A stretch of DNA of 61,028 bases from UHGV virus genome UHGV-0011871; one strand, 5' to 3'. Below are positions 2,286 to 27,681 of the stretch, piece after piece. The stretch comes from a virus. Positions within the stretch are counted from its first letter, which is position 1. Each line of letters opens with the position of its first letter. Under the pieces are notes generated by a model that did not search any database, was not told where the DNA came from, and worked only from the letters and a program-made list of their open reading frames with translations. A program made the translations under genes and the position numbers.

Positions 2286-4991
2286 TTAACAGTTGTATGT
2301 TCCACGCCAGTACGGATACGCACCGGCTGTATTTGTTCCGTTTATATACAGCCAAAATCCGTGACCTGAGAAGTCAATGGCGTATGGGGTTACGTTTCCT
2401 GCGGAAGAAAAAAAGCCTGCGGATGATGGAATATAGTTCTTCTGAGTACGGAAGTTAACGCCCACACCTGCGAGTGTACTTGTGGTTTTCACATGTTCCC
2501 GAGCGCCCACACCGCAATAGCCGGTTTCTCGATAGTTTTTAACCCAGTCTCCGGAACTGTTTAGGTATAGCTGATTTCCGTATGAGCCGATTCCGTCAAA
2601 ACTCATAGACGTTCCGCTTAACATCCGTACCGCCGCTCCACTGATTTCGAGGGCACCGTAAATGCTAGTTAAACGTGAGGAAGGGCTTATCGAGATTCCG
2701 CCTCCGCTATACATATTGATGTACGAACTTATGTTGCCCCAAGAGTCCGAAGCCCCCATTCGTAACAGACCGTCTCCGAGAATCTGCTTGCCTTGCGACA
2801 TTAACAGGTCCGCCCGCATTTGAAGGCTGCTATTGTCACTTGCGATGTAACCGGCTCCGCCCGTTGTCGTTCCTAGGTAAATCGACTTGTGAGTCTGGCT
2901 TACGTTTATAGTTCCGACTTGAAATCCGCTTGCATTCCATATCGCCCATGAGCCTGTGTTATTTTCTATCTTACCGTGTCCATCCGTTAGTTCCATGTCG
3001 GAGGCACCGTCTGACGAACGGAATACCGAACCTGTAATCGTAGTACCGGTGATGTAAGCACTCGTAATGTTAACCGAGTTTAGCTGACCGGAGTACACCG
3101 TTCCCAAGTTGGCTGTTAATGACGATAGTTCGTAGACATTTATGTGATTCGAATTGATTACGTTAGCCGCAATCTCAGTCGTGCTGTCCACTCGGTTCGG
3201 ACCTGCAGGACCCATCATTAGCGCCCAAGTGTATTCGGATGCGTTCGTGGACTCAACCGGTGTCGTCTTGTTATGCGCAACCCCGATGTATTTCTTTCCG
3301 GTCGGGTCGTCGCTCAATCCGCCTCCGATTGCGTTGTCAGCGTACTTAATCCACGTATATGTTGTGACTCCGTCTTTCCCGTCTTCGCCGTCAGCACCTC
3401 TGATAAGCGACCATACGTAGTCAGCCGGGTCATTCGATTCGGTAGGAGTCGTCTTGTTGTATGCGAAACCGATGTACCGTTTTCCGGTCGGTTCGTCGGA
3501 TATGCCCGAGCCGTTTTCATCGTCTGCATATTTGACCCAAGTGTACGTCGTCTCACCGTCTTTGCCGTCTTTACCGTTCTCGCCGTCTGCCCCTTTAATC
3601 AGCGACCAAGTATAGTCGGTCGGGTCGTCGGATTCCTTAGGTGTCGGCTTATTCGCTGCGATACCGATGTAGTCTTTACCGCTCGGGTCGTCTGTCATTC
3701 CGTTACCTTGAGCGTCGTCAGCGTACTTAACCCAAGTGTAGAACGATAGCCCCGGAGGTCCTTGCGTTCCCGTCTCTTCCCATTGACCGGTGTCGTGATT
3801 ATATATCTTCATTACGTGTGATGCGCCTGACGTGTCAATCCATATCCAGTTCGTATTAGTAGGCGGATTGTCACCATAAAAGATGTTCGTTTTCTGCGCT
3901 AGCTGATTTCGGAAGTAATCCCGTAGAGCACGGATTTCATCCTCTTCATACTCGATGAACTCGCCTAGCGTAAACTTCTTCTCTGTCGGGTCTGTGATAG
4001 GTGCTTCGATTGCGATCACTCGAGCGTCTAGGTATAGTGGCGGTTCGTATTCTGTCGCTTTGATTCGTACGCTATCGCCCAGTCGAATCTTCTCGTTTTC
4101 ATAGCCGAGAATATGCTCGAGGTCTGCCCCATCGATTGTGTACTCGATAGCTGCCGCAATCCTAGCGTTAAGTGACTGCGTCGCATACTGCCGGACTTGC
4201 GCCTCAGACATTTCTTGATTGTCGGATTGAACCTCGAGAACTTCCCATAGGTGCCGTCCGTCCCTGCCCCAAACTTGACGTGCTTCTTCATTGGTCACTT
4301 CGACAACGATTCGTGAGCCATCTTCCCTTTCCGGTCCTAAACCGACTAGAGCCGTGACCACTTCTTCGGTTGTTTCCCGTCTTGTCGCATTGATTAAGTC
4401 CTTACCGGAGTTAATTTCCCGACCGATAAAGCCTCCAATACGTTTGACAGCGTCTACGTAGCGTCCTGTGACCTTGTTACCGTTAGTCTCAATACGGAAG
4501 CTGAGTTCCATTTCATGGGCGTATGCCGTTTCCTGCAACGCTTGGAAAGGCGATACATAATTGTCGAATTCAATTGTAGCCGTACCGGAGTAGTCCGTGT
4601 TACCACGCTTCCACCCCGTGCCTGATAAGACAATGTCCATCATCGTATTTAGCGATTGTCCCTCGTGCTTGCCTGCCGGTAACGGCTTACCTTTCTTCAA
4701 TTCAAGATGCGATGCCGTGGAGTAAACCTCGACTTTGTGGAAGTCTTGAATCGTTTCATCGATAATGAACTCTCGGAAGATACCGCCCCCGACCGGAATA
4801 ATCAGTCGGTTGCGTTCCCGAAGGAAAGGGGTAGCATCGCTCTCAGGAACCGTTGTAAAGTCGAAAGTCTCTTTGCTGCCGGATAGTTGCTGTAGATGTG
4901 AGTCGTCGTATATTACCGTTCTTTCGCTAGTGTTACTCAGAACGGCGACCAATAAATCGGTCTGACCGTCTAGTACGTGAATTTGAGACAT
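2286..4991 (-). CDS. tail fibre / receptor-binding protein (Tal-like N-terminus, triplicated internal repeat)
   Basis: 901 aa, directly downstream of Dit. Three tandem ~60-aa repeats ('TYTWVKYADD..GxG.SD.PTGKxYIG.A.NKTTP.ES.D...Y.W.L..G..G..GKDG') and a Gly/Ser/Thr-rich C-terminal domain. Confidence 0.7.
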   Translation of the reverse strand: MSQIHVLDGQTDLLVAVLSNTSERTVIYDDSHLQQLSGSKETFDFTTVPESDATPFLRERNRLIIPVGGGIFREFIIDETIQDFHKVEVYSTASHLELKKGKPLPAGKHEGQSLNTMMDIVLSGTGWKRGNTDYSGTATIEFDNYVSPFQALQETAYAHEMELSFRIETNGNKVTGRYVDAVKRIGGFIGREINSGKDLINATRRETTEEVVTALVGLGPEREDGSRIVVEVTNEEARQVWGRDGRHLWEVLEVQSDNQEMSEAQVRQYATQSLNARIAAAIEYTIDGADLEHILGYENEKIRLGDSVRIKATEYEPPLYLDARVIAIEAPITDPTEKKFTLGEFIEYEEDEIRALRDYFRNQLAQKTNIFYGDNPPTNTNWIWIDTSGASHVMKIYNHDTGQWEETGTQGPPGLSFYTWVKYADDAQGNGMTDDPSGKDYIGIAANKPTPKESDDPTDYTWSLIKGADGENGKDGKDGETTYTWVKYADDENGSGISDEPTGKRYIGFAYNKTTPTESNDPADYVWSLIRGADGEDGKDGVTTYTWIKYADNAIGGGLSDDPTGKKYIGVAHNKTTPVESTNASEYTWALMMGPAGPNRVDSTTEIAANVINSNHINVYELSSLTANLGTVYSGQLNSVNITSAYITGTTITGSVFRSSDGASDMELTDGHGKIENNTGSWAIWNASGFQVGTINVSQTHKSIYLGTTTGGAGYIASDNSSLQMRADLLMSQGKQILGDGLLRMGASDSWGNISSYINMYSGGGISISPSSRLTSIYGALEISGAAVRMLSGTSMSFDGIGSYGNQLYLNSSGDWVKNYRETGYCGVGAREHVKTTSTLAGVGVNFRTQKNYIPSSAGFFSSAGNVTPYAIDFSGHGFWLYINGTNTAGAYPYWRGTYNC

Positions 4992-17142: not shown

Positions 17143-18759
17143 TTATCTTGCTCGTTTCCTCGTCGTTCGGATTACTGCGTTTCCTTGCTGTGCCGTTGCG
17201 TATCCCATTTGTACCGCATCGGGACCGTCGTCGTGTTTATGCATCGGATACATTTCGAACTGCTCGATCAGCTTCCGATCGATGTTACGATTGAACCGTA
17301 GCTTACCGCTTTGAACGTCCGGCAGCATCGATTCGATACGCAGTGCCTTACGAGTACGTTGTTTTATCTGCTTGATACGTGTATGGCTCGGGTAGCCGTG
17401 CGCTTGTAAGCCCTCCGCCAACTTGTCAGCGATAAACTCCTGTGCGAACTGTGCCTCGATGCCGATACCTTCGTATTGATATTTCATCGTATAATCGATT
17501 ACCTTCTGAATGAGGATGTCGGGATGAACCCGTTCCATGTATATGTCCCACACGTAATACTTGCCAGTATCGAGGTTCCTCACAATCGTAGCGATAACCG
17601 AGTAGTCACCTGCCTGCTTACCCATCGCAATATCGATACCTGCGTAAAAACGTAAGTTAGCGTGTTTCAATTCCTCAGGGTCGAACCATTCGAAGTATTC
17701 CGGCTTGAAGACCTGACGTTCCTCGTCCGTTGGGTTATTTTGGTATTCTTGGTTGAACATCTTCGCACCGTTTTCCTCACGGATAACGATAAACTCGTAG
17801 TATGACCAATAGCCGGGCCACAAGATTTCCGTACCCTTCAACATTTCCTCTTCGTTTTCCTCGTAGAATGCCCGAGCGTCGTCGGCTGCTGTTTTCGAAT
17901 CAGACCGATAAATCTTACGCCATTGTTCCCACAAGTCCTCACGTTCTGAAAACGAGGTTACCGCCGACATTTTACGAGATTCGAAGTCTCGCCGTTCTTC
18001 GATTACATAATGTAGTAGCGAGCCGAAACATAGGATTGTTCCGAGGTAAATACAGATACCTTCCTTCGACATCGCCGGTAGCATTTCCTCACGGAACCAC
18101 GCTTTGTTCTTCTCGATCAATACCGGAGTATTAGTCGACTCTTTCGATTCCAAGTCGTCGAGAATGAACATGTCCGGTCGAGTATCGCCGTGTCGCAAGC
18201 CCCTCGTTTGCGTTCCTAACCCTTTCGCTTCCACTTTCGTATCAGTCGTCGTAATGAACTCGTATTTGTTATCAAGTTCGTTCATTGACGGCTTGACATG
18301 CAAGATTTCACCGTAGTCGGCTCGTAGCTTTTCGTTTAATTTCAGTTGGTACTTGCCCCACGAAATGAAGTCGCCTGCTACGTCGGTAGTTTCCGAGAAC
18401 AATACGATGTAACGCTTTGCCCTGTACACGATTTGATGCACGAGGAATATGTTCGAAATCCATGCGGTCTTTGCGTGTCTACGAGGTACGGCCCAAGCTA
18501 CGTTTTTCTTCTGCCTGCCGGTCATGATGTCGTTGAACAATTCGCAAAGTTCCTTGTGTATCCATGCTGCGTTAGCTACGTTGACACCCTCAGGAATCAA
18601 GTTACTCGGATTGCCTGGGTTACCATCGTCCGAGAAATACGTCATTCCGAAGTAGAGAACGTCGTGCTCCCCACGATGGATGCGTTCTACCTGCTCGATC
18701 TCGTCTAACACGTCCTCTAATCGAATGAGGTCGGCATCTACCGCTTGACCTGACTTCAT
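17143..18759 (-). CDS. terminase large subunit
   Basis: 538 aa, with an N-terminal ATPase region and a C-terminal nuclease-like region containing acidic motifs. Sits between TerS and the portal. Confidence 0.8.
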   Translation of the reverse strand: MKSGQAVDADLIRLEDVLDEIEQVERIHRGEHDVLYFGMTYFSDDGNPGNPSNLIPEGVNVANAAWIHKELCELFNDIMTGRQKKNVAWAVPRRHAKTAWISNIFLVHQIVYRAKRYIVLFSETTDVAGDFISWGKYQLKLNEKLRADYGEILHVKPSMNELDNKYEFITTTDTKVEAKGLGTQTRGLRHGDTRPDMFILDDLESKESTNTPVLIEKNKAWFREEMLPAMSKEGICIYLGTILCFGSLLHYVIEERRDFESRKMSAVTSFSEREDLWEQWRKIYRSDSKTAADDARAFYEENEEEMLKGTEILWPGYWSYYEFIVIREENGAKMFNQEYQNNPTDEERQVFKPEYFEWFDPEELKHANLRFYAGIDIAMGKQAGDYSVIATIVRNLDTGKYYVWDIYMERVHPDILIQKVIDYTMKYQYEGIGIEAQFAQEFIADKLAEGLQAHGYPSHTRIKQIKQRTRKALRIESMLPDVQSGKLRFNRNIDRKLIEQFEMYPMHKHDDGPDAVQMGYATAQQGNAVIRTTRKRAR

Positions 18760-18895: not shown

Positions 18896-19330
18896 TTAGT
18901 TATCGTTTGCTTTGTTAATACGTTCCAGTAGCGCTGCCTTACGCTCTTCGAACGAAAGATCGCCACCGTTATTGATCGTTACCTCAGTATGCGTATCTAG
19001 GTCGCCAATACGCTTCAAGTAAACCTCGATGCCCCTTACCGAGCCACGCTCGATGGAGTCGATTAGTTTCTTGTAAACTAGCGCAAGGTGCGAATCCATG
19101 AACTCACTCGCTAAATAGTTCTTGTAGTTAATGAAGTTCGAATCCTTCGTATCCCAGTTATGCAATGTCTTCCGGCTGACACCGAGTTCTTCTGCGATTG
19201 CTTCCTTAGTCTTGCGTTGCCCTTTCGGCGTAAACTCGTATTCTACTAATGCTATCGCTGCTTCTCGTTGCTTCGGTAAGAACTTAGATTCATCGTATTT
19301 AAAGTTATGTTTGTTGCTCACGTTGTCCAC
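18896..19330 (-). CDS. terminase small subunit (HTH)
   Basis: 144 aa with an HTH ('EAIAEELGVSRKTLHNWDTKD'). It is the first gene of the structural operon, adjacent to a repeat-rich non-coding region. Confidence 0.6.
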   Translation of the reverse strand: MDNVSNKHNFKYDESKFLPKQREAAIALVEYEFTPKGQRKTKEAIAEELGVSRKTLHNWDTKDSNFINYKNYLASEFMDSHLALVYKKLIDSIERGSVRGIEVYLKRIGDLDTHTEVTINNGGDLSFEERKAALLERINKANDN

Positions 19331-19570
19331 CTCCTCGTTTTAATTTCGTACACTGCTTCGCCACCGTGGAACATGCGCCCCTTGACGTAAATTAATACGC
19401 CATGTTATCGTATGTATGTAAAATCCTCACGTAATGCCCATCGATTGCCCACCGTATTGCCCTCTCGTGGTCGACCCCGACCTTTGAAAATTTTGTAGGA
19501 ATTTTTCGGACACCCGGCAGCACGGGCGCAGGCTCGATATACCCCCGGGGGTTCACAAACCCAGTAATAC

Positions 19571-20300
19571 CAACGGTTTGACCCGTTTCCAGGCGTTTCC
19601 AACTAGCCATAAACTACGTTATGTAAACTAGACCGGAATGCCTCGAAGTGGCTTCGGCCTTACAGCCCCAACGGTTGCAGCCGTTTGCCCACCGAATCAT
19701 AATAACTTCCCATTGCGTATATACCCCTACCATACGGGACTATCGTACTATATCCGACACTATGCCCGAGTCAATACGTATACCCCCAATATCTGACGGA
19801 TGCCCGTCTGCTGAACGGTTTGCCCGATGTTTTGGCGTACATGACCGAGTGCCTATAGCGTACTCATACCATGCCCTGTACGTTGCCTATACGTGTAATA
19901 CCGTATACCGTATACCCTATCGATGCCCAAACGTCTTTTTTCGCCTTTAATAGAAGGAACTGGCACGGATACAACGAAGATCGACTATATATAACGTTAC
20001 ACAATCGCTGATATACCAACGGTTTAACACGTTTATATCGAGTGTTATTTATCGCTTATTTACTTGTGTTTTCTAGGTTGTCTATTGATACGAGCGAAGC
20101 GAAGTATAGTCTCTTATATACGTTGTTACCGTTGTATATACGTTAATACGTGTACAACCGTTGTCCCCGTTGACTTCTCAATATATAGTGGGACTACGCC
20201 GGTAAAATATAACCTATGGAACGAAAAAACTTTTTATTTTCGTAAAAAACGTGTAAAAACCCCGTCATATCAACGTTTGCAGCGTTTCATAAAACGTCGA
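19571..20300. repeat. dispersed AACGGTTT-N4-CGTTT repeats in the non-coding region upstream of terS
   Basis: Copies at 19571-19600, 19669-19690, 20017-20037, 20156-20175 and 20269-20300. Related copies at 196-262 and 60993-61020. Confidence 0.5.
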
Positions 20301-20439
20301 TCTTCGATGAAAAACGAAATAAAACGAAATTAATACTTGCAATCGAAAGTACACGGTTATATAATTGCATTAGCCAGTTAGGAACGGCACGGAAACGATG
20401 CCTACCGACACGGCAACGAAAAAGAATTTTCGAAAGTTG

Positions 20440-20469
20440 TTGACACGGTTTAAGAGTCGATGCTATACT
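20440..20469 (+). promoter_or_regulatory. early promoter P1 (TTGACA-N18-TATACT)
   Basis: The -35 is TTGACA at 20440-20445 and the -10 is TATACT at 20464-20469, with an upstream A-tract. Confidence 0.6.
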
Positions 20470-20543
20470 GAAAAGGAATCAGCGACACGGCACGGTAAAC
20501 GTCAGTCGGGTTGTAACGATTCAAAAATAGTTTTAAAAAGTTG

Positions 20544-20573
20544 TTGACACGAAGAATGAGTCGATGCTACAAT
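20544..20573 (+). promoter_or_regulatory. early promoter P2 (TTGACA-N18-TACAAT)
   Basis: -35 at 20544-20549 and -10 at 20568-20573. Shares the spacer motif CGAAGAATGAGTCGATGC. Confidence 0.6.
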
Positions 20574-20662
20574 AAAAGGGAATCAACGGCTGTACGGCTT
20601 GCTAGTACGATTGAGTTCGGAAACCTACCGAAACGGCTGAAAAAAGATTGTCGAAAAAGTAG

Positions 20663-20692
20663 TTGACACGAACAATGAGTCAATGATACAAT
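20663..20692 (+). promoter_or_regulatory. early promoter P3 (TTGACA-N18-TACAAT)
   Basis: -35 at 20663-20668 and -10 at 20687-20692. Confidence 0.6.
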
Positions 20693-20770
20693 GAAAGAGT
20701 CGAAGGCAAGCCGGATGCAGAAGCCGGAAACCCGACACGGATAACGACTTGAAAGTTTTTTAAAAAGTAG

Positions 20771-20800
20771 TTGACACGAAATTAGTGTCATGGTAAACTA
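20771..20800 (+). promoter_or_regulatory. early promoter P4 (TTGACA-N18-TAAACT)
   Basis: -35 at 20771-20776 and -10 at 20795-20800. Confidence 0.5.
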
Positions 20801-21156
20801 AGGTTACAACGTCACACAAGCCAAGCGAAGCAAGGTCACAACGTCACTAAGTTTCGATCTTTGACATAACCCTATATTCGGACTCTATCGAAGTGCTGAA
20901 TCCGACGACGAAAACAAGCGAACCCGCACGTTAACAAACGAGTGGCAAGCGGTAACTAGTCGACTACTACCCGAATGGATAGGCACTACTAAATCGTCCT
21001 TTATCGATAGCATGTTAAGCGAAGCGGAACCTTAAAGGTTGCGGTGACGGGCGGTAAAAAACCCCGAGCGACGGACTAAGGCTGAACAGATTTCGTGAAC
21101 ATGAAGTGCTTACCTCGTCTTTAAGCGAATGGGCTTACGAAAGGAGGGTCGATCTT

Positions 21157-21246
21157 ATGCAAAATAAGCGGATTTTTTACCTTGGGACTCGTGTATCAAT
21201 CGTAGTTAAGTCGAAGAACAAACGAAGAGGAGTGATAAACTGGTAA
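21157..21246 (+). CDS. possible leader peptide (29 aa) in the early leader
   Basis: A strong RBS (AAGGAGGG) sits 9 nt upstream of the ATG. Not in the ORF track (<60 aa). Confidence 0.25.
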   Translation: MQNKRIFYLGTRVSIVVKSKNKRRGVINW

Positions 21247-21337
21247 CGATACATCAAGCGGTTACATAACTAATCTATCGGATACCCCATTCGTTTAAAG
21301 ATGCGGTAAGTAAACATAAAATATGGAGGCGATACCT

Positions 21338-21565
21338 ATGAACAAACTAGAAGAACGAGTATTTGCAGCGTGTGCATGGAATCAAGCGAATGACAGCAAC
21401 GGTGAATTCCTGGAATTGTGGGCGGAGTATATCCGAGAGGAACTGACAATCGTACTACTAATAGACATCGTAAACAATGCGACAATGCAGGCATACGAGG
21501 ACTTATACACAAGCGGAAACATTGCGGATGCGAACGAAGTCAAAAAATATATCGTGGAGGTATGA
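21338..21565 (+). CDS. hypothetical early protein
   Basis: The ATG at 21338 has an RBS (TGGAGGCG); first gene of the early operon. Confidence 0.5.
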   Translation: MNKLEERVFAACAWNQANDSNGEFLELWAEYIREELTIVLLIDIVNNATMQAYEDLYTSGNIADANEVKKYIVEV

Positions 21566-21569
21566 GAAA

Positions 21570-21824
21570 ATGGAAAAACGGGAAGTGGTAGCGGTAATAA
21601 CGGTGACAAACGTATCGGCGGTGCTTATATACGAAGCCGAAAGCGACTATGTAGTAGCATCGTTGGCAGTAGGTGACTCGATTGACGAGCCGGAGACATA
21701 CGAGATTCAATACGAGTTACCCGAGGACGCAGACGAAGAGGACGAAGACATCGAATACGAGCCGGTATTCTACATGGGTGAATGGCGGATGTCACTGAAC
21801 CACGCAATGAGAGTACAAAGGTAG
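21570..21824 (+). CDS. hypothetical acidic early protein
   Basis: ATG at 21570 after a GGAGG; the protein is very acidic ('PEDADEEDEDIEYEP'). Confidence 0.5.
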   Translation: MEKREVVAVITVTNVSAVLIYEAESDYVVASLAVGDSIDEPETYEIQYELPEDADEEDEDIEYEPVFYMGEWRMSLNHAMRVQR

Positions 21825-21916: not shown

Positions 21917-22489
21917 ATGATTAGCGTAGCACTTACAAACTTAGGAAAATACAACGAAGGGACATTGGATTACGTATGGCTAGACTTACCGGCAACTGAC
22001 GAAGATATTGCGGAGGCATTCAAAACTATCGGAGTAGCTGACGGCACCGAATACGAGGAACATTTCTTGAGCGACTGGGACGCACCGGACTTCTTCGAAG
22101 TGGGTCAGTACTCGAGCGTGACAAAACTCAACGAATTAGCTGCAAAACTGGCGGAGATCGACGGCTTGGAGTCTATCTTTGACGGGACATACGAAGCAGG
22201 CGACATCGTAAACCTAGCCCACGAACTGGAAGCACAAGGACATATTCAAGATGCACACGACTATGTCGGGGACATCGTTTCAGACGAAGAACTTGACGAA
22301 ATGGTAAGACATGAGGCGGAATCAGGCGGATGGCAACGTGTGGCACACTTCCTAGACGGAATCAAATACATGTCGGAGGACTACTACTACATTAACGGAT
22401 ACGCAAACGCTGAGAACTTGTCGCAAGTCACGCTCGATGCAATCGTAGACGACATGATGAACGAAATAAAACGCAACTTAGAGGTATAA
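21917..22489 (+). CDS. ardA: ArdA-like anti-restriction protein (DNA mimic)
   Basis: The N-terminal 'LGKYNEGTLDYVWLDLPATDEDIAEAF...EEHFLSDWDAPDFF' matches the ArdA signature (KYN.G.L.G.WLDL ... D.EF ... F.DWEG.P). The protein is highly acidic. Confidence 0.7.
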   Translation: MISVALTNLGKYNEGTLDYVWLDLPATDEDIAEAFKTIGVADGTEYEEHFLSDWDAPDFFEVGQYSSVTKLNELAAKLAEIDGLESIFDGTYEAGDIVNLAHELEAQGHIQDAHDYVGDIVSDEELDEMVRHEAESGGWQRVAHFLDGIKYMSEDYYYINGYANAENLSQVTLDAIVDDMMNEIKRNLEV

Positions 22490-24085: not shown

Positions 24086-24165
24086 TGCACGGGACTCCCG
24101 TCCCTTGTCTTGCGTCTGCTACGGCAGGCTCGAGCCAAGCGTTGGGAGGCGCTGAGAAATAATTG

Positions 24166-24194
24166 TTGACACGATATACGAGTCGTGATAATAT
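24166..24194 (+). promoter_or_regulatory. internal early promoter P6 (TTGACA-N17-TGnTAATAT, extended -10)
   Basis: 'TTGACACGATATACGAGTCGTGATAATAT' has the same -35-proximal 'TTGACACGA' and the 'GAGTCG' spacer core as P1-P5. Confidence 0.55.
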
Positions 24195-24228: not shown

Positions 24229-24699
24229 ATGAAAAACGAAATGTACACTAGAGGGGTATTTACACCAACGGCACACGTTATCTGCTACAACTGCCACGAC
24301 ACAAGTTACAGACCATCCGATAAATTGGCGGACTCAAGCAAGCGACCATTGCAGGAAGGTAACGGGGTTACAAAGTGCGACATGTGCGGAACTGACATCC
24401 AGTTAGACTCAAGCGTAGCCGAGGAACATAATCTAGTAGCCGAGTTTAAAGCGCTAGGATTCGATGCGGTAATGGCACAAACTGGCGGTATGAATAGTGC
24501 ATGTGAGATTAATACGAAGGTTGAAGACGGTAAAATTATCGAATGGGTATCGATAACATTCGACTACTGCGGAGACTCGGAGTATGCAGCCTTGCACATT
24601 CTCGAGGAAGGCGACGACTGGGAGGACATCGTTTGTACTACGGACAAGGCGGAGTTTATGAAAGCTATCACGGAATTCGTGACGAAGGAGGAAAAGTAA
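24229..24699 (+). CDS. zinc-ribbon early protein
   Basis: ATG after a GGAGGAAACGAA RBS; CxxC ... CxxC. Confidence 0.5.
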   Translation: MKNEMYTRGVFTPTAHVICYNCHDTSYRPSDKLADSSKRPLQEGNGVTKCDMCGTDIQLDSSVAEEHNLVAEFKALGFDAVMAQTGGMNSACEINTKVEDGKIIEWVSITFDYCGDSEYAALHILEEGDDWEDIVCTTDKAEFMKAITEFVTKEEK

Positions 24700-27102: not shown

Positions 27103-27681
27103 ATGGCAAAAGCAGAAAAAGTAAAGAAACCGTTCTACAAAAAATGGTGGGTATGGGTACTCGCAATTATCGTTATAGCTGCATTCGCAGGTGGTGGCGA
27201 GGAAGCCGAGGAAACATCCACGTCCAATCAAACGAACCAAAAAGAGGAAAAAGCGAGTAAGAAAGAGGAAGTCGTAGGCATGGGCGAAGCGATTAAAGTC
27301 GGTGACGTTGTATTCACGGTACACGGCAAGGAAACAGCGAAGACAATCGGCGATCAATACGTAGGGCAAGACGCACAAGGAACGTATCTAATACTCGATG
27401 TCACGGTTAAGAACGAAGGCAAAGAAGCGATAACAACCGATTCATCGTTCTTCAAACTGAAAGCAGGCGAATCGACTTACGACTCAGACGGGACAGCCGA
27501 CATGTATATCAACGATGCAAACAATATGTTCTTCCTCGCTAAAGTAAATCCAGGCAACGAGACACGAGGCAAGATAGCATTCGATGTCAACGATGCAGTT
27601 ATCAACGCTACTGATACGGTAGTCAACGTACAAACGGGTGCCTTCGGTACCGAACAAGCGCAAATTAAAATCGCTGAATAA
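27103..27681 (+). CDS. DUF4352-like membrane-anchored protein
   Basis: N-terminal TM helix followed by a beta-rich domain with 'VGDVVFTVHG...YLILDVTVKNEGKEA...', resembling DUF4352. Confidence 0.5.
   Translation: MAKAEKVKKPFYKKWWVWVLAIIVIAAFAGGGEEAEETSTSNQTNQKEEKASKKEEVVGMGEAIKVGDVVFTVHGKETAKTIGDQYVGQDAQGTYLILDVTVKNEGKEAITTDSSFFKLKAGESTYDSDGTADMYINDANNMFFLAKVNPGNETRGKIAFDVNDAVINATDTVVNVQTGAFGTEQAQIKIAE

Follow-up and report, generated by a model that had tools for sequence, protein, structure and literature searches.

Organization of the early leader region

The window analyzed here, the whole 61,028-nt stretch of UHGV virus genome UHGV-0011871, looks by its sequence like a complete siphophage-type genome of the Bacillus type, and the element in question is the leader of its early operon (20801–21337). 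TerL (17143–18759, minus strand) shares 60% identity with TerL of Bacillus phage phBC6A51, and a non-coding region of 2 kb lies between the divergent TerS (18896–19330, minus strand) and block of small early genes (plus strand). The leader elements all lie on the plus strand: an array of sigma-A-type promoters, two direct repeats, a boxA-like element, an AAGCG-rich untranslated segment, a local RNA domain and a long-range stalk that encloses a 29-codon open reading frame (ORF). Further early genes follow at 21338–21565 and 21570–21824 (ORF list), and then the ArdA anti-restriction gene at 21917–22489 (Pfam ArdA, E 4e-20).

The window showed no DNA similarity to the phage collection in either the near or the distant search mode, no tRNA in the tRNA scan, and no match to Rfam 15 at the gathering threshold over its whole length; two weak sub-threshold Rfam matches, at chance level (E 2.8 and 4.3), lie outside the leader core. 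First relatives came from terminase-based searches of viral, genome and metagenome collections, and further ones from TerS homologues traced back to their contigs. Eleven other contigs have the same layout (L001, L003, L055, L063, L065, L066, L070, L072, L073, L076 and L078; L003 is the same as L056, and L070 the same as L071), namely TerS, ~1–1.3 kb of non-coding DNA, one to four sigma-A-type promoters, a leader of 250–400 nt and the early genes. The order promoter array, boxA-like element, AAGCG-rich leader, stalk and early genes, usually with ArdA, is kept in all of them; early gene content varies from contig to contig, whereas some parts of the leader are conserved. ArdA occupies the same place in relatives and lies directly 3′ of the stalk in L003. 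The phBC6A51-like prophages, with TerL ~60% identical, lack the promoter array and the leader, two further contigs (L075 and L077) lack this architecture, and a scan of viral contigs for the exact leader core matched the L001 contig alone.

The preliminary description of this DNA had proposed an untranslated leader of ~520 nt that contains a 29-codon ORF with a strong ribosome-binding site (RBS) and no ORF of 60 aa or more. The ORF list indeed holds no ORF of at least 60 aa within 20800–21337, and the short ORF (MQNKRIFYLGTRVSIVVKSKNKRRGVINW, 21157–21246) and its RBS (AAGGAGGG, 21141–21148) are present as described, both inside the stalk loop. Sequence comparison identifies this ORF as a real, conserved first gene. 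In L063, L066 and L072 the stalk holds a homologue of 29–31 aa as its first cistron; in L001 and L065 the first genes are longer and have the peptide as their C-terminal part; and the motif xN(K/T)R(K/R)(G/D)xIxW occurs in the first cistron inside the stalk in all six lineage-1 phages. The leader is thus long, but because the small ORF is conserved in relatives its untranslated part comes to ~350 nt (~20806–21156), and 21247–21337 is an intercistronic spacer. The 29-aa product is basic (KSKNKRRG) and is absent from lineage 2 (L003 and L055), which keeps boxA; it matched no Pfam or PHROG family, and the first early proteins in general matched none with a function.

An rrn-like promoter array and a boxA-like element

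The promoter scan placed five sigma-A-type promoters in 20337–20799: P0 (20337–20365), P1 (20440–20469), P2 (20544–20573), P3 (20663–20692) and P4 (20771–20799). P4, TTGACA-17-TAAACT, lies directly 5′ of the leader, and P1–P4 belong to repeat units of ~104–119 nt with A/T-rich, UP-like tracts (repeat families D1–D3). For comparison with rRNA (rrn) operons, real B. subtilis and Peribacillus operons were taken from the plasmid collection; in B. subtilis, the sequence of rrn promoter and leader is ...TTTTAAAAAGTTGTTGACT-17-TATACT...AAAGCAAGCAAACAAAATGATCTTTGAAAACTAAA. P2 (TTTTAAAAAGTTGTTGAC) is identical to the UP/−35 region of the B. subtilis rrn promoter over 18 of 18 positions (E 6.7e-5), and P4 matches the same region at 18 of 19 nt. 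In its sequence, the promoter array is rrn-like.

The boxA-like element GATCTTTGACATAAC (20856–20870) follows the last −10 box by ~55 nt. Searched on both strands, the window matches the Firmicute-adapted consensus G[AT]TCTTTGANA only at the core of this element, GATCTTTGACA (20856–20866, +55 from P4). In the B. subtilis rrn operon, the leader boxA reads GATCTTTGAAAACTAAA and the spacer boxA GTTCTTTGAAAACTAGATAA; when GATCTTTGACA is set against the leader boxA core GATCTTTGAAA, position 10 is the sole difference. That position is N in the gamma-proteobacterial boxA consensus GYTCTTTAANA (PMC5725501). Closer matches occur among the relatives: TGATCTTTGAAAACTAAA of L003 is identical to the B. 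subtilis rrn leader boxA at 18 of 18 positions (E 2.9e-5), and L073 matches the spacer boxA at 18 of 20. A boxA with at most one mismatch lies within 200 nt of the last −10 box in 6 of the 12 leaders, compared with 0.6% of background 200-nt stretches; two of the remaining leaders have an element with two mismatches and four an element with three, and most of these weaker elements have a common variant core, ACATTGA. The position of boxA is kept in 12 diverged phages with unalignable flanks. Taken together, the resemblance suggests that the leader boxA is a candidate rrn-type Nus-factor antitermination site.

A second class of boxA-like element, G.ACATTGA[AC]A, stands at the boxA position in several lineages (L001, L063, L070 and L076), where it replaces G[AT]TC[TC]TTGA[AC]A; it may fit a different host boxA or weak Nus binding. 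No second boxA was found further downstream in the window, and, apart from boxA and promoter, comparison of the leaders with the B. subtilis rrn operon, 16S, 23S and 5S included, gave nothing. Resemblances to the 5′ end of 23S rRNA and to the sarcin-ricin loop were set aside as chance-level 9-mers. A scan of viral contigs with the Firmicute boxA 15-mer produced, among the matches listed, mostly chance matches within ORFs, and is no measure of boxA frequency in phages.

Between P4 and boxA lie the two direct repeats AAGGTYACAACGTCAC (20800–20815 and 20832–20847, repeat family D12, 94% identity), which match at 15 of 16 positions over this extended length. Their cores, GGTTACAACGTCAC at 20802–20815 and GGTCACAACGTCAC at 20834–20847, match at 13 of 14 positions and are 18 nt apart; the preliminary description located the first correctly and the second one nucleotide too far downstream (20835–20848). 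The repeats flank the first AAGCG site, at or just 3′ of the P4 start, and since P4 lies directly upstream, the first of them probably overlaps the P4 +1. They are near-identical and have no further zero-mismatch match anywhere in the 61 kb, and looser copies (up to three mismatches) occur genome-wide at chance frequency (12 found, 9.6 expected), so the pair is a real local duplication. Two other matches were put down to chance: a copy at 27302, and 10 nt of the direct repeat that recur as reverse complement in the spacer of the B. subtilis rrn promoter.

A predicted long-range stalk around the first gene

An inverted repeat (I2, 21109–21133 with 21286–21310) surrounds the small ORF. Inverted-repeat, duplex-energy and covariation analyses place the 5′ arm of the resulting stalk, GCUUACCUCGUCUUUAAGCGAAUGGG, at 21108–21133 and the 3′ arm, CCCAUUCGUUUAAAGAUGCGGUAAGU, at 21286–21311, where it ends 14 nt 5′ of the Shine-Dalgarno sequence of the next gene. 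The predicted helix has 25 pairs, arranged as 7 + 18 around one mismatch, with a duplex energy in the window of −39 kcal/mol compared with −22 for shuffled targets. The 5′ arm (...CCUCGUCUUUAAGCG...) finds a 3′ partner 150–670 nt downstream in six phages, with energies of −38 to −45 kcal/mol compared with about −21 for shuffled targets, and five of the six have their single mismatch at one common position. When the arms of these six phages were aligned in register, 96% of cells were paired and 16 of the 25 pairs had changed on both sides; none of 500 shuffles reached the observed values, and sliding the partner reduced pairing to 30–42%. The 21000–21320 segment folds with z = −2.5 in the sense and z = −0.9 in the antisense orientation, and the stalk is present in both its minimum free energy and centroid folds. 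Because the stalk contains two conserved G·U pairs and the antisense fold is weaker, the helix belongs to the sense RNA only. It leaves the RBSs of the small ORF and of the next gene unsequestered.

Stalks are also predicted in more distant leaders. In the second lineage, L003 has a hairpin and L055 the same arms around a gene; the L073 stalk (−46 kcal/mol) surrounds a small gene, that of L078 surrounds the first gene, and L076 has a local hairpin. The content of the loop differs from phage to phage: 34 nt in L003, a 124-aa gene in L055, a 29–31-aa gene in four phages and 93–101-aa genes in L001 and L065 (loop positions: L003, ~4600–4720; L055, ~4320–4760, minus strand). Judged from these sequences, the stalk loop is a variable cargo slot.

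A counterpart is found in the B. subtilis rrn operon, whose leader pairs with the 16S–23S spacer in a 10+16-bp stalk with one mismatch and with boxA inside the 5′ arm; this is the known 16S processing stalk. Nearly perfect duplexes of ~25 bp are canonical RNase III substrates, and by analogy the window stalk suggests a candidate RNase III-type processing site.

Just 5′ of the stalk, RNAalifold on five lineage-1 phages delimited a local RNA domain at 21011–21103. It is closed by CAUGUU (21011–21016) with AACAUG (21098–21103) and by CGAA (21020–21023) with UUCG (21092–21095), and within these two covarying helices lies a variable hairpin. In the alignment, 91% of cells were paired and 11 pairs showed double changes, a result reached by none of 500 shuffles, and slid controls gave 29–43%; the domain also appears in the minimum free energy and centroid folds of the window sequence. 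With only five sequences, the model is suggestive. The idea of one big structured RNA was rejected in favor of discrete helices, given whole-leader folding at the shuffle level. Through the covariation-supported helices found in this cross-phage comparison and the recognizable boxA, the earlier suggestion of a structured or regulated leader RNA is borne out. Attenuation, which had been suggested along with it, does not fit: no terminator lies in the leader or 3′ of it, and the early operon has terminator-like sites only at the frequency of shuffles.

AAGCG enrichment in the leader

The untranslated leader between 20816 and 21133 is rich in AAGCG, with copies at 20823, 20916, 20947, 21017, 21022 and 21123; two more lie at 21166 and 21256, and the leader contains no CGCTT. 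These eight copies compare with 0.5 expected from the whole-genome frequency and 1.3 from the sense-strand frequency. When nine leaders were compared each with its own downstream sense-strand genes, AAGCG was the top-ranked 5-mer (47 observed, 5.8 expected; P ~1e-26), followed by words that overlap it, and the complement CGCTT occurred 0–1 times per leader. Leaders not alignable with that of the window are enriched as well: L073 and L076 have 7–8 copies, and L078 has ~10, clustered 3′ of the stalk. The sites give the sequence logo YAAGCGRA and show no preference for unpaired positions. Within the genome, the window leader is the densest 350-nt stretch for AAGCG, by a small margin. A literature search for a protein that binds AAGCG found nothing. 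Of all parts of the leader, this enrichment is the one most likely to hide something new.

Another AAGCG-dense stretch, at 24131, was considered as a second leader and dismissed as coding sequence behind a fifth promoter. That promoter (TTGACAcgatatacgagtcgTGaTAATAT, 24166–24194) belongs to the P1–P4 sequence family and follows a terminator-like hairpin (24089–24104); it has only a short leader, with no boxA before the gene starting at 24230.

A model of the leader and its alternatives

From the observed sequence elements, their conservation and the predicted RNA helices, we infer that the leader is fairly probably an early-operon control cassette modelled on the host rRNA operon, with Nus/boxA antitermination and RNase III-type processing. 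In such a cassette, four to five tandem rrn-like promoters would fire immediately on DNA entry. After ~55 nt of transcript, boxA would recruit the host NusB/NusE (S10)–NusA–NusG complex to RNA polymerase, and the modified polymerase would resist Rho-dependent termination over ~350 nt of untranslated RNA and the small early genes. The tethered leader would be followed by the small structured domain and then by the 5′ arm of the 25-bp helix; once the 3′ arm emerges past the first small gene, host RNase III could cut the double-stranded stalk and separate the leader and first cistron from the mRNA of the anti-restriction gene and the other early genes. Comparable behavior is described for rrn elongation complexes: boxA is the main element that nucleates them, and they keep hold of the leader at the RNA exit and are proposed to bring it to its complement, so that the RNase III site forms (PMC8632103). 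BoxA also shields long non-coding transcripts, including those of CRISPR arrays, from Rho (PMC7665894).

Several points weigh against this model. Nus binding, antitermination and RNase III cleavage are proposed from resemblance, and the boxA elements were scored against the B. subtilis/Firmicute consensus, which may not be the phage host's own. The 11-mer match in the window is by itself modestly surprising, with 0.37 expected per genome, and four to six of the relatives have a degenerate element (G.ACATTGA.A, two to three mismatches) that is not significant alone, the four with three mismatches among them. Of the rrn accessories, boxB and boxC were not identified in the leaders and no conserved hairpin lies 5′ of boxA; a hairpin after boxA is present in L001 and L066 and weak in the window, and is not consistently conserved. 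Taken whole, the leader folds no better than shuffles of it (z +0.9), and that of L001 behaves likewise. Terminator-like sites in the early operon are no commoner than in shuffles; since there are thus no clear early-operon terminators to override, the target of antitermination would have to be Rho, and Rho sites are not predictable from sequence. Nor can the stalk be scored for B. subtilis RNase III, an enzyme without a sequence consensus. Finally, the rrn-type model leaves the AAGCG enrichment unexplained. In E. coli rrn, boxB is dispensable (PMC8632103).

The stalk could be real and yet not be an RNase III site, serving to stabilize or insulate the mRNA or to control translation of the enclosed gene, with boxA a captured rrn relic without Nus function. 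Promoter and boxA adjoin in host rrn operons and could have been captured together, several relatives have a degenerate boxA, and the cargo of the stalk ranges from nothing to a 124-aa gene. We nevertheless consider this unlikely: boxA holds its position in 12 diverged phages despite unalignable flanks, the helix has the length and near-perfect pairing of established RNase III substrates, the order boxA then stalk recurs in the B. subtilis rrn operon, and the RBSs of the small ORF and the next gene are free of the stalk. The preliminary description also offered the two direct repeats past P4 as an operator pair; on this reading, a phage or host repressor bound there would shut off early transcription. 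The repeats are real, nearly identical and above chance, and the first overlaps the predicted P4 start; but they are missing from the equivalent place in all 11 related leaders and are not found at P1–P3, which would stay unrepressed, the genome holds no further copies beyond the chance level given above, and they are direct rather than palindromic, with no repressor gene adjacent. Since the repeats are not conserved, an operator role is left without support, and we regard it as very unlikely.

The AAGCG enrichment invites two further explanations. The leader could be a protein-binding platform or sponge RNA whose 6–11 YAAGCGRA sites titrate a host or phage RNA-binding protein; made in bulk from rrn-strength promoters and freed by stalk cleavage, it would be compatible with the rRNA-operon-type cassette and add to it. 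The top rank of AAGCG across the nine leaders, its recurrence in the mutually unalignable leaders of L073, L076 and L078, the turnover of site positions with the number of sites kept, and the biased flanks (Y before and RA after the motif) all speak for such a role. Against it stand the literature search, which gave no protein that recognizes the motif, the irregular spacing of sites that are not preferentially unpaired, the location of some copies within helices or in the small ORF, where they encode Lys-Arg, the window cluster being only modestly denser than two coding regions, and the descent shared by some sites within lineage 1. On balance, a sponge RNA seems possible but rather improbable, and we are equally tentative in suggesting that the AAGCG segment, always on the sense strand and between the rrn-strength promoters and the RNase III-type stalk, is a new kind of cis-element, either as a released sponge RNA or as an accessory site of a Firmicute rRNA-type antitermination complex. 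Alternatively, the AAGCG/AGCGG cluster might act on DNA, as a Chi-like array that stops host AddAB near the first-entering genome end. The Chi pentamer of B. subtilis is AGCGG, and GAAGCGG has the name ‘Chi’ in S. aureus (bioRxiv 10.1101/2021.07.08.451572). Of seven AGCGG copies on the plus strand of the window, six fall within 20948–21590, across leader and first two early genes, and the sites are strictly strand-specific. The common motif is, however, AAGCG and not AGCGG, of which L003 and L055 have one copy each; genome-wide, AAGCG shows an observed/expected ratio of 1.18, an ordinary purine-strand skew, and AGCGG is depleted (0.43). Judged from Chi polarity, the orientation would be readable only by an enzyme moving from the early genes toward the promoters, not from an end in the TerS-adjacent non-coding region, the nearest plausible genome end, and the cluster is always 3′ of the promoters and boxA, which points to RNA. 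A Chi-like function is therefore very unlikely.

Features around the leader

Upstream of the array, ~700 nt of non-coding DNA (19611–20330) between the small ORF next to TerS and the promoters contain dense short direct and inverted repeats, of a AACGGTTTG...CCGTTT family and an AT-rich TATACG type; L003 and L055 have ‘tatataNcgtt’ arrays at the equivalent place. Candidate roles for this segment are those of a packaging site, a genome end or a replication origin. The small ORF itself (72 aa, 19392–19610, minus strand) lies directly upstream of TerS on the same strand, and is called as a gene of 81–84 aa in L063, L065 and L072, so that it is probably real; it matched no Pfam or PHROG family. 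An independent assembly of a nearly identical phage, L068 (ENA contig, 61,083 bp), starts at about window position 20740, between P3 and P4. The repeated promoter units probably broke the assembly at this point, which would then not be a physical genome end.

In L078, a relative with boxA and stalk, the TerS-adjacent non-coding region holds an integrase gene (4181–4708), and the cassette may thus also occur in temperate members. Certain 5-mers are markedly avoided in the 61 kb: GCGCG, CGCGT, GGATC, ACGCG and CACAG occur once each, and CCAGC and GCTGG two to three times, which suggests restriction-site avoidance.

Significance and comparison with known systems

For Nus/boxA antitermination, E. 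coli and lambda are the well-studied cases; to our knowledge it has barely been studied in Firmicutes, and we know of no description in their phages. If the proposed model is true, a group of Gram-positive phages takes over the host rRNA transcription program for its immediate-early genes, anti-restriction included, by borrowing the strongest promoters, Nus-factor antitermination and RNase III processing. The leaders would offer a compact, non-essential test substrate for Firmicute Nus/boxA antitermination, and boxA with the long-range stalk a small natural model of the tethered-leader ‘delivery’ that is hard to study on a 1.5-kb rRNA. The variable cargo slot in the stalk loop may interest phage engineers, and the AAGCG enrichment is a lead to an RNA–protein interaction.

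The closest parallel is the rrn operon itself, which shares with the phage leader tandem strong promoters with a near-identical UP/−35 region, a boxA of the Firmicute rrn version and a ~25-bp long-range helix that has one internal mismatch and encloses cargo. The cargo differs, being a small protein gene or nothing in the phages and rRNA in the operon. In the phages, boxA and the 5′ arm are also separated by 150–250 nt of AAGCG-rich RNA, whereas in B. subtilis rrn boxA lies within the 5′ arm, and the phage leader lacks the second, downstream boxA and identified boxB or boxC elements.

In the lambda pL–nutL–N region, a nut site of boxA and boxB and, after it, a hairpin sensitive to RNase III precede the first early gene, and RNase III cleavage uncouples the mRNA from the tethered antitermination complex. 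The series of early promoter, boxA-type site, RNase III-type structure and first early gene is common to both. Unlike lambda, the phages described here have a Gram-positive host and an rrn-type boxA, and showed no consistent boxB and no N-like protein, the first early proteins matching no family; an rrn-type boxA works in E. coli without a phage protein. The early region of T7 consists of the tandem host-polymerase promoters A1–A3, the RNase III site R0.3 and gene 0.3, which encodes the anti-restriction protein Ocr. It resembles the window in the succession of tandem strong host-type promoters (placed to one side of the genome), RNase III-type structure and anti-restriction gene (ArdA in the window), and differs in lacking boxA and in having local hairpins as RNase III sites instead of a gene-enclosing long-range stalk.

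Among Bacillus phages, a precedent for processing of early transcripts by the host enzyme is given by SP82/SPO1: Bs-RNase III cuts SP82 early mRNA, according to work cited in PMC4838370. Those phages are unrelated, without sequence similarity found to the window, and their sites are local hairpins. Re-use of the rrn boxA outside rRNA operons is likewise known from CRISPR arrays and suhB, where it provides Rho protection or gene regulation (PMC7665894, PMC5725501); those cases are cellular and mostly from Proteobacteria, whereas here the element is found in Gram-positive phages together with a stalk. On the proposed reading, the leader forms no new category but belongs with the known kinds represented by the rrn operon, lambda nutL and T7 R0.3.

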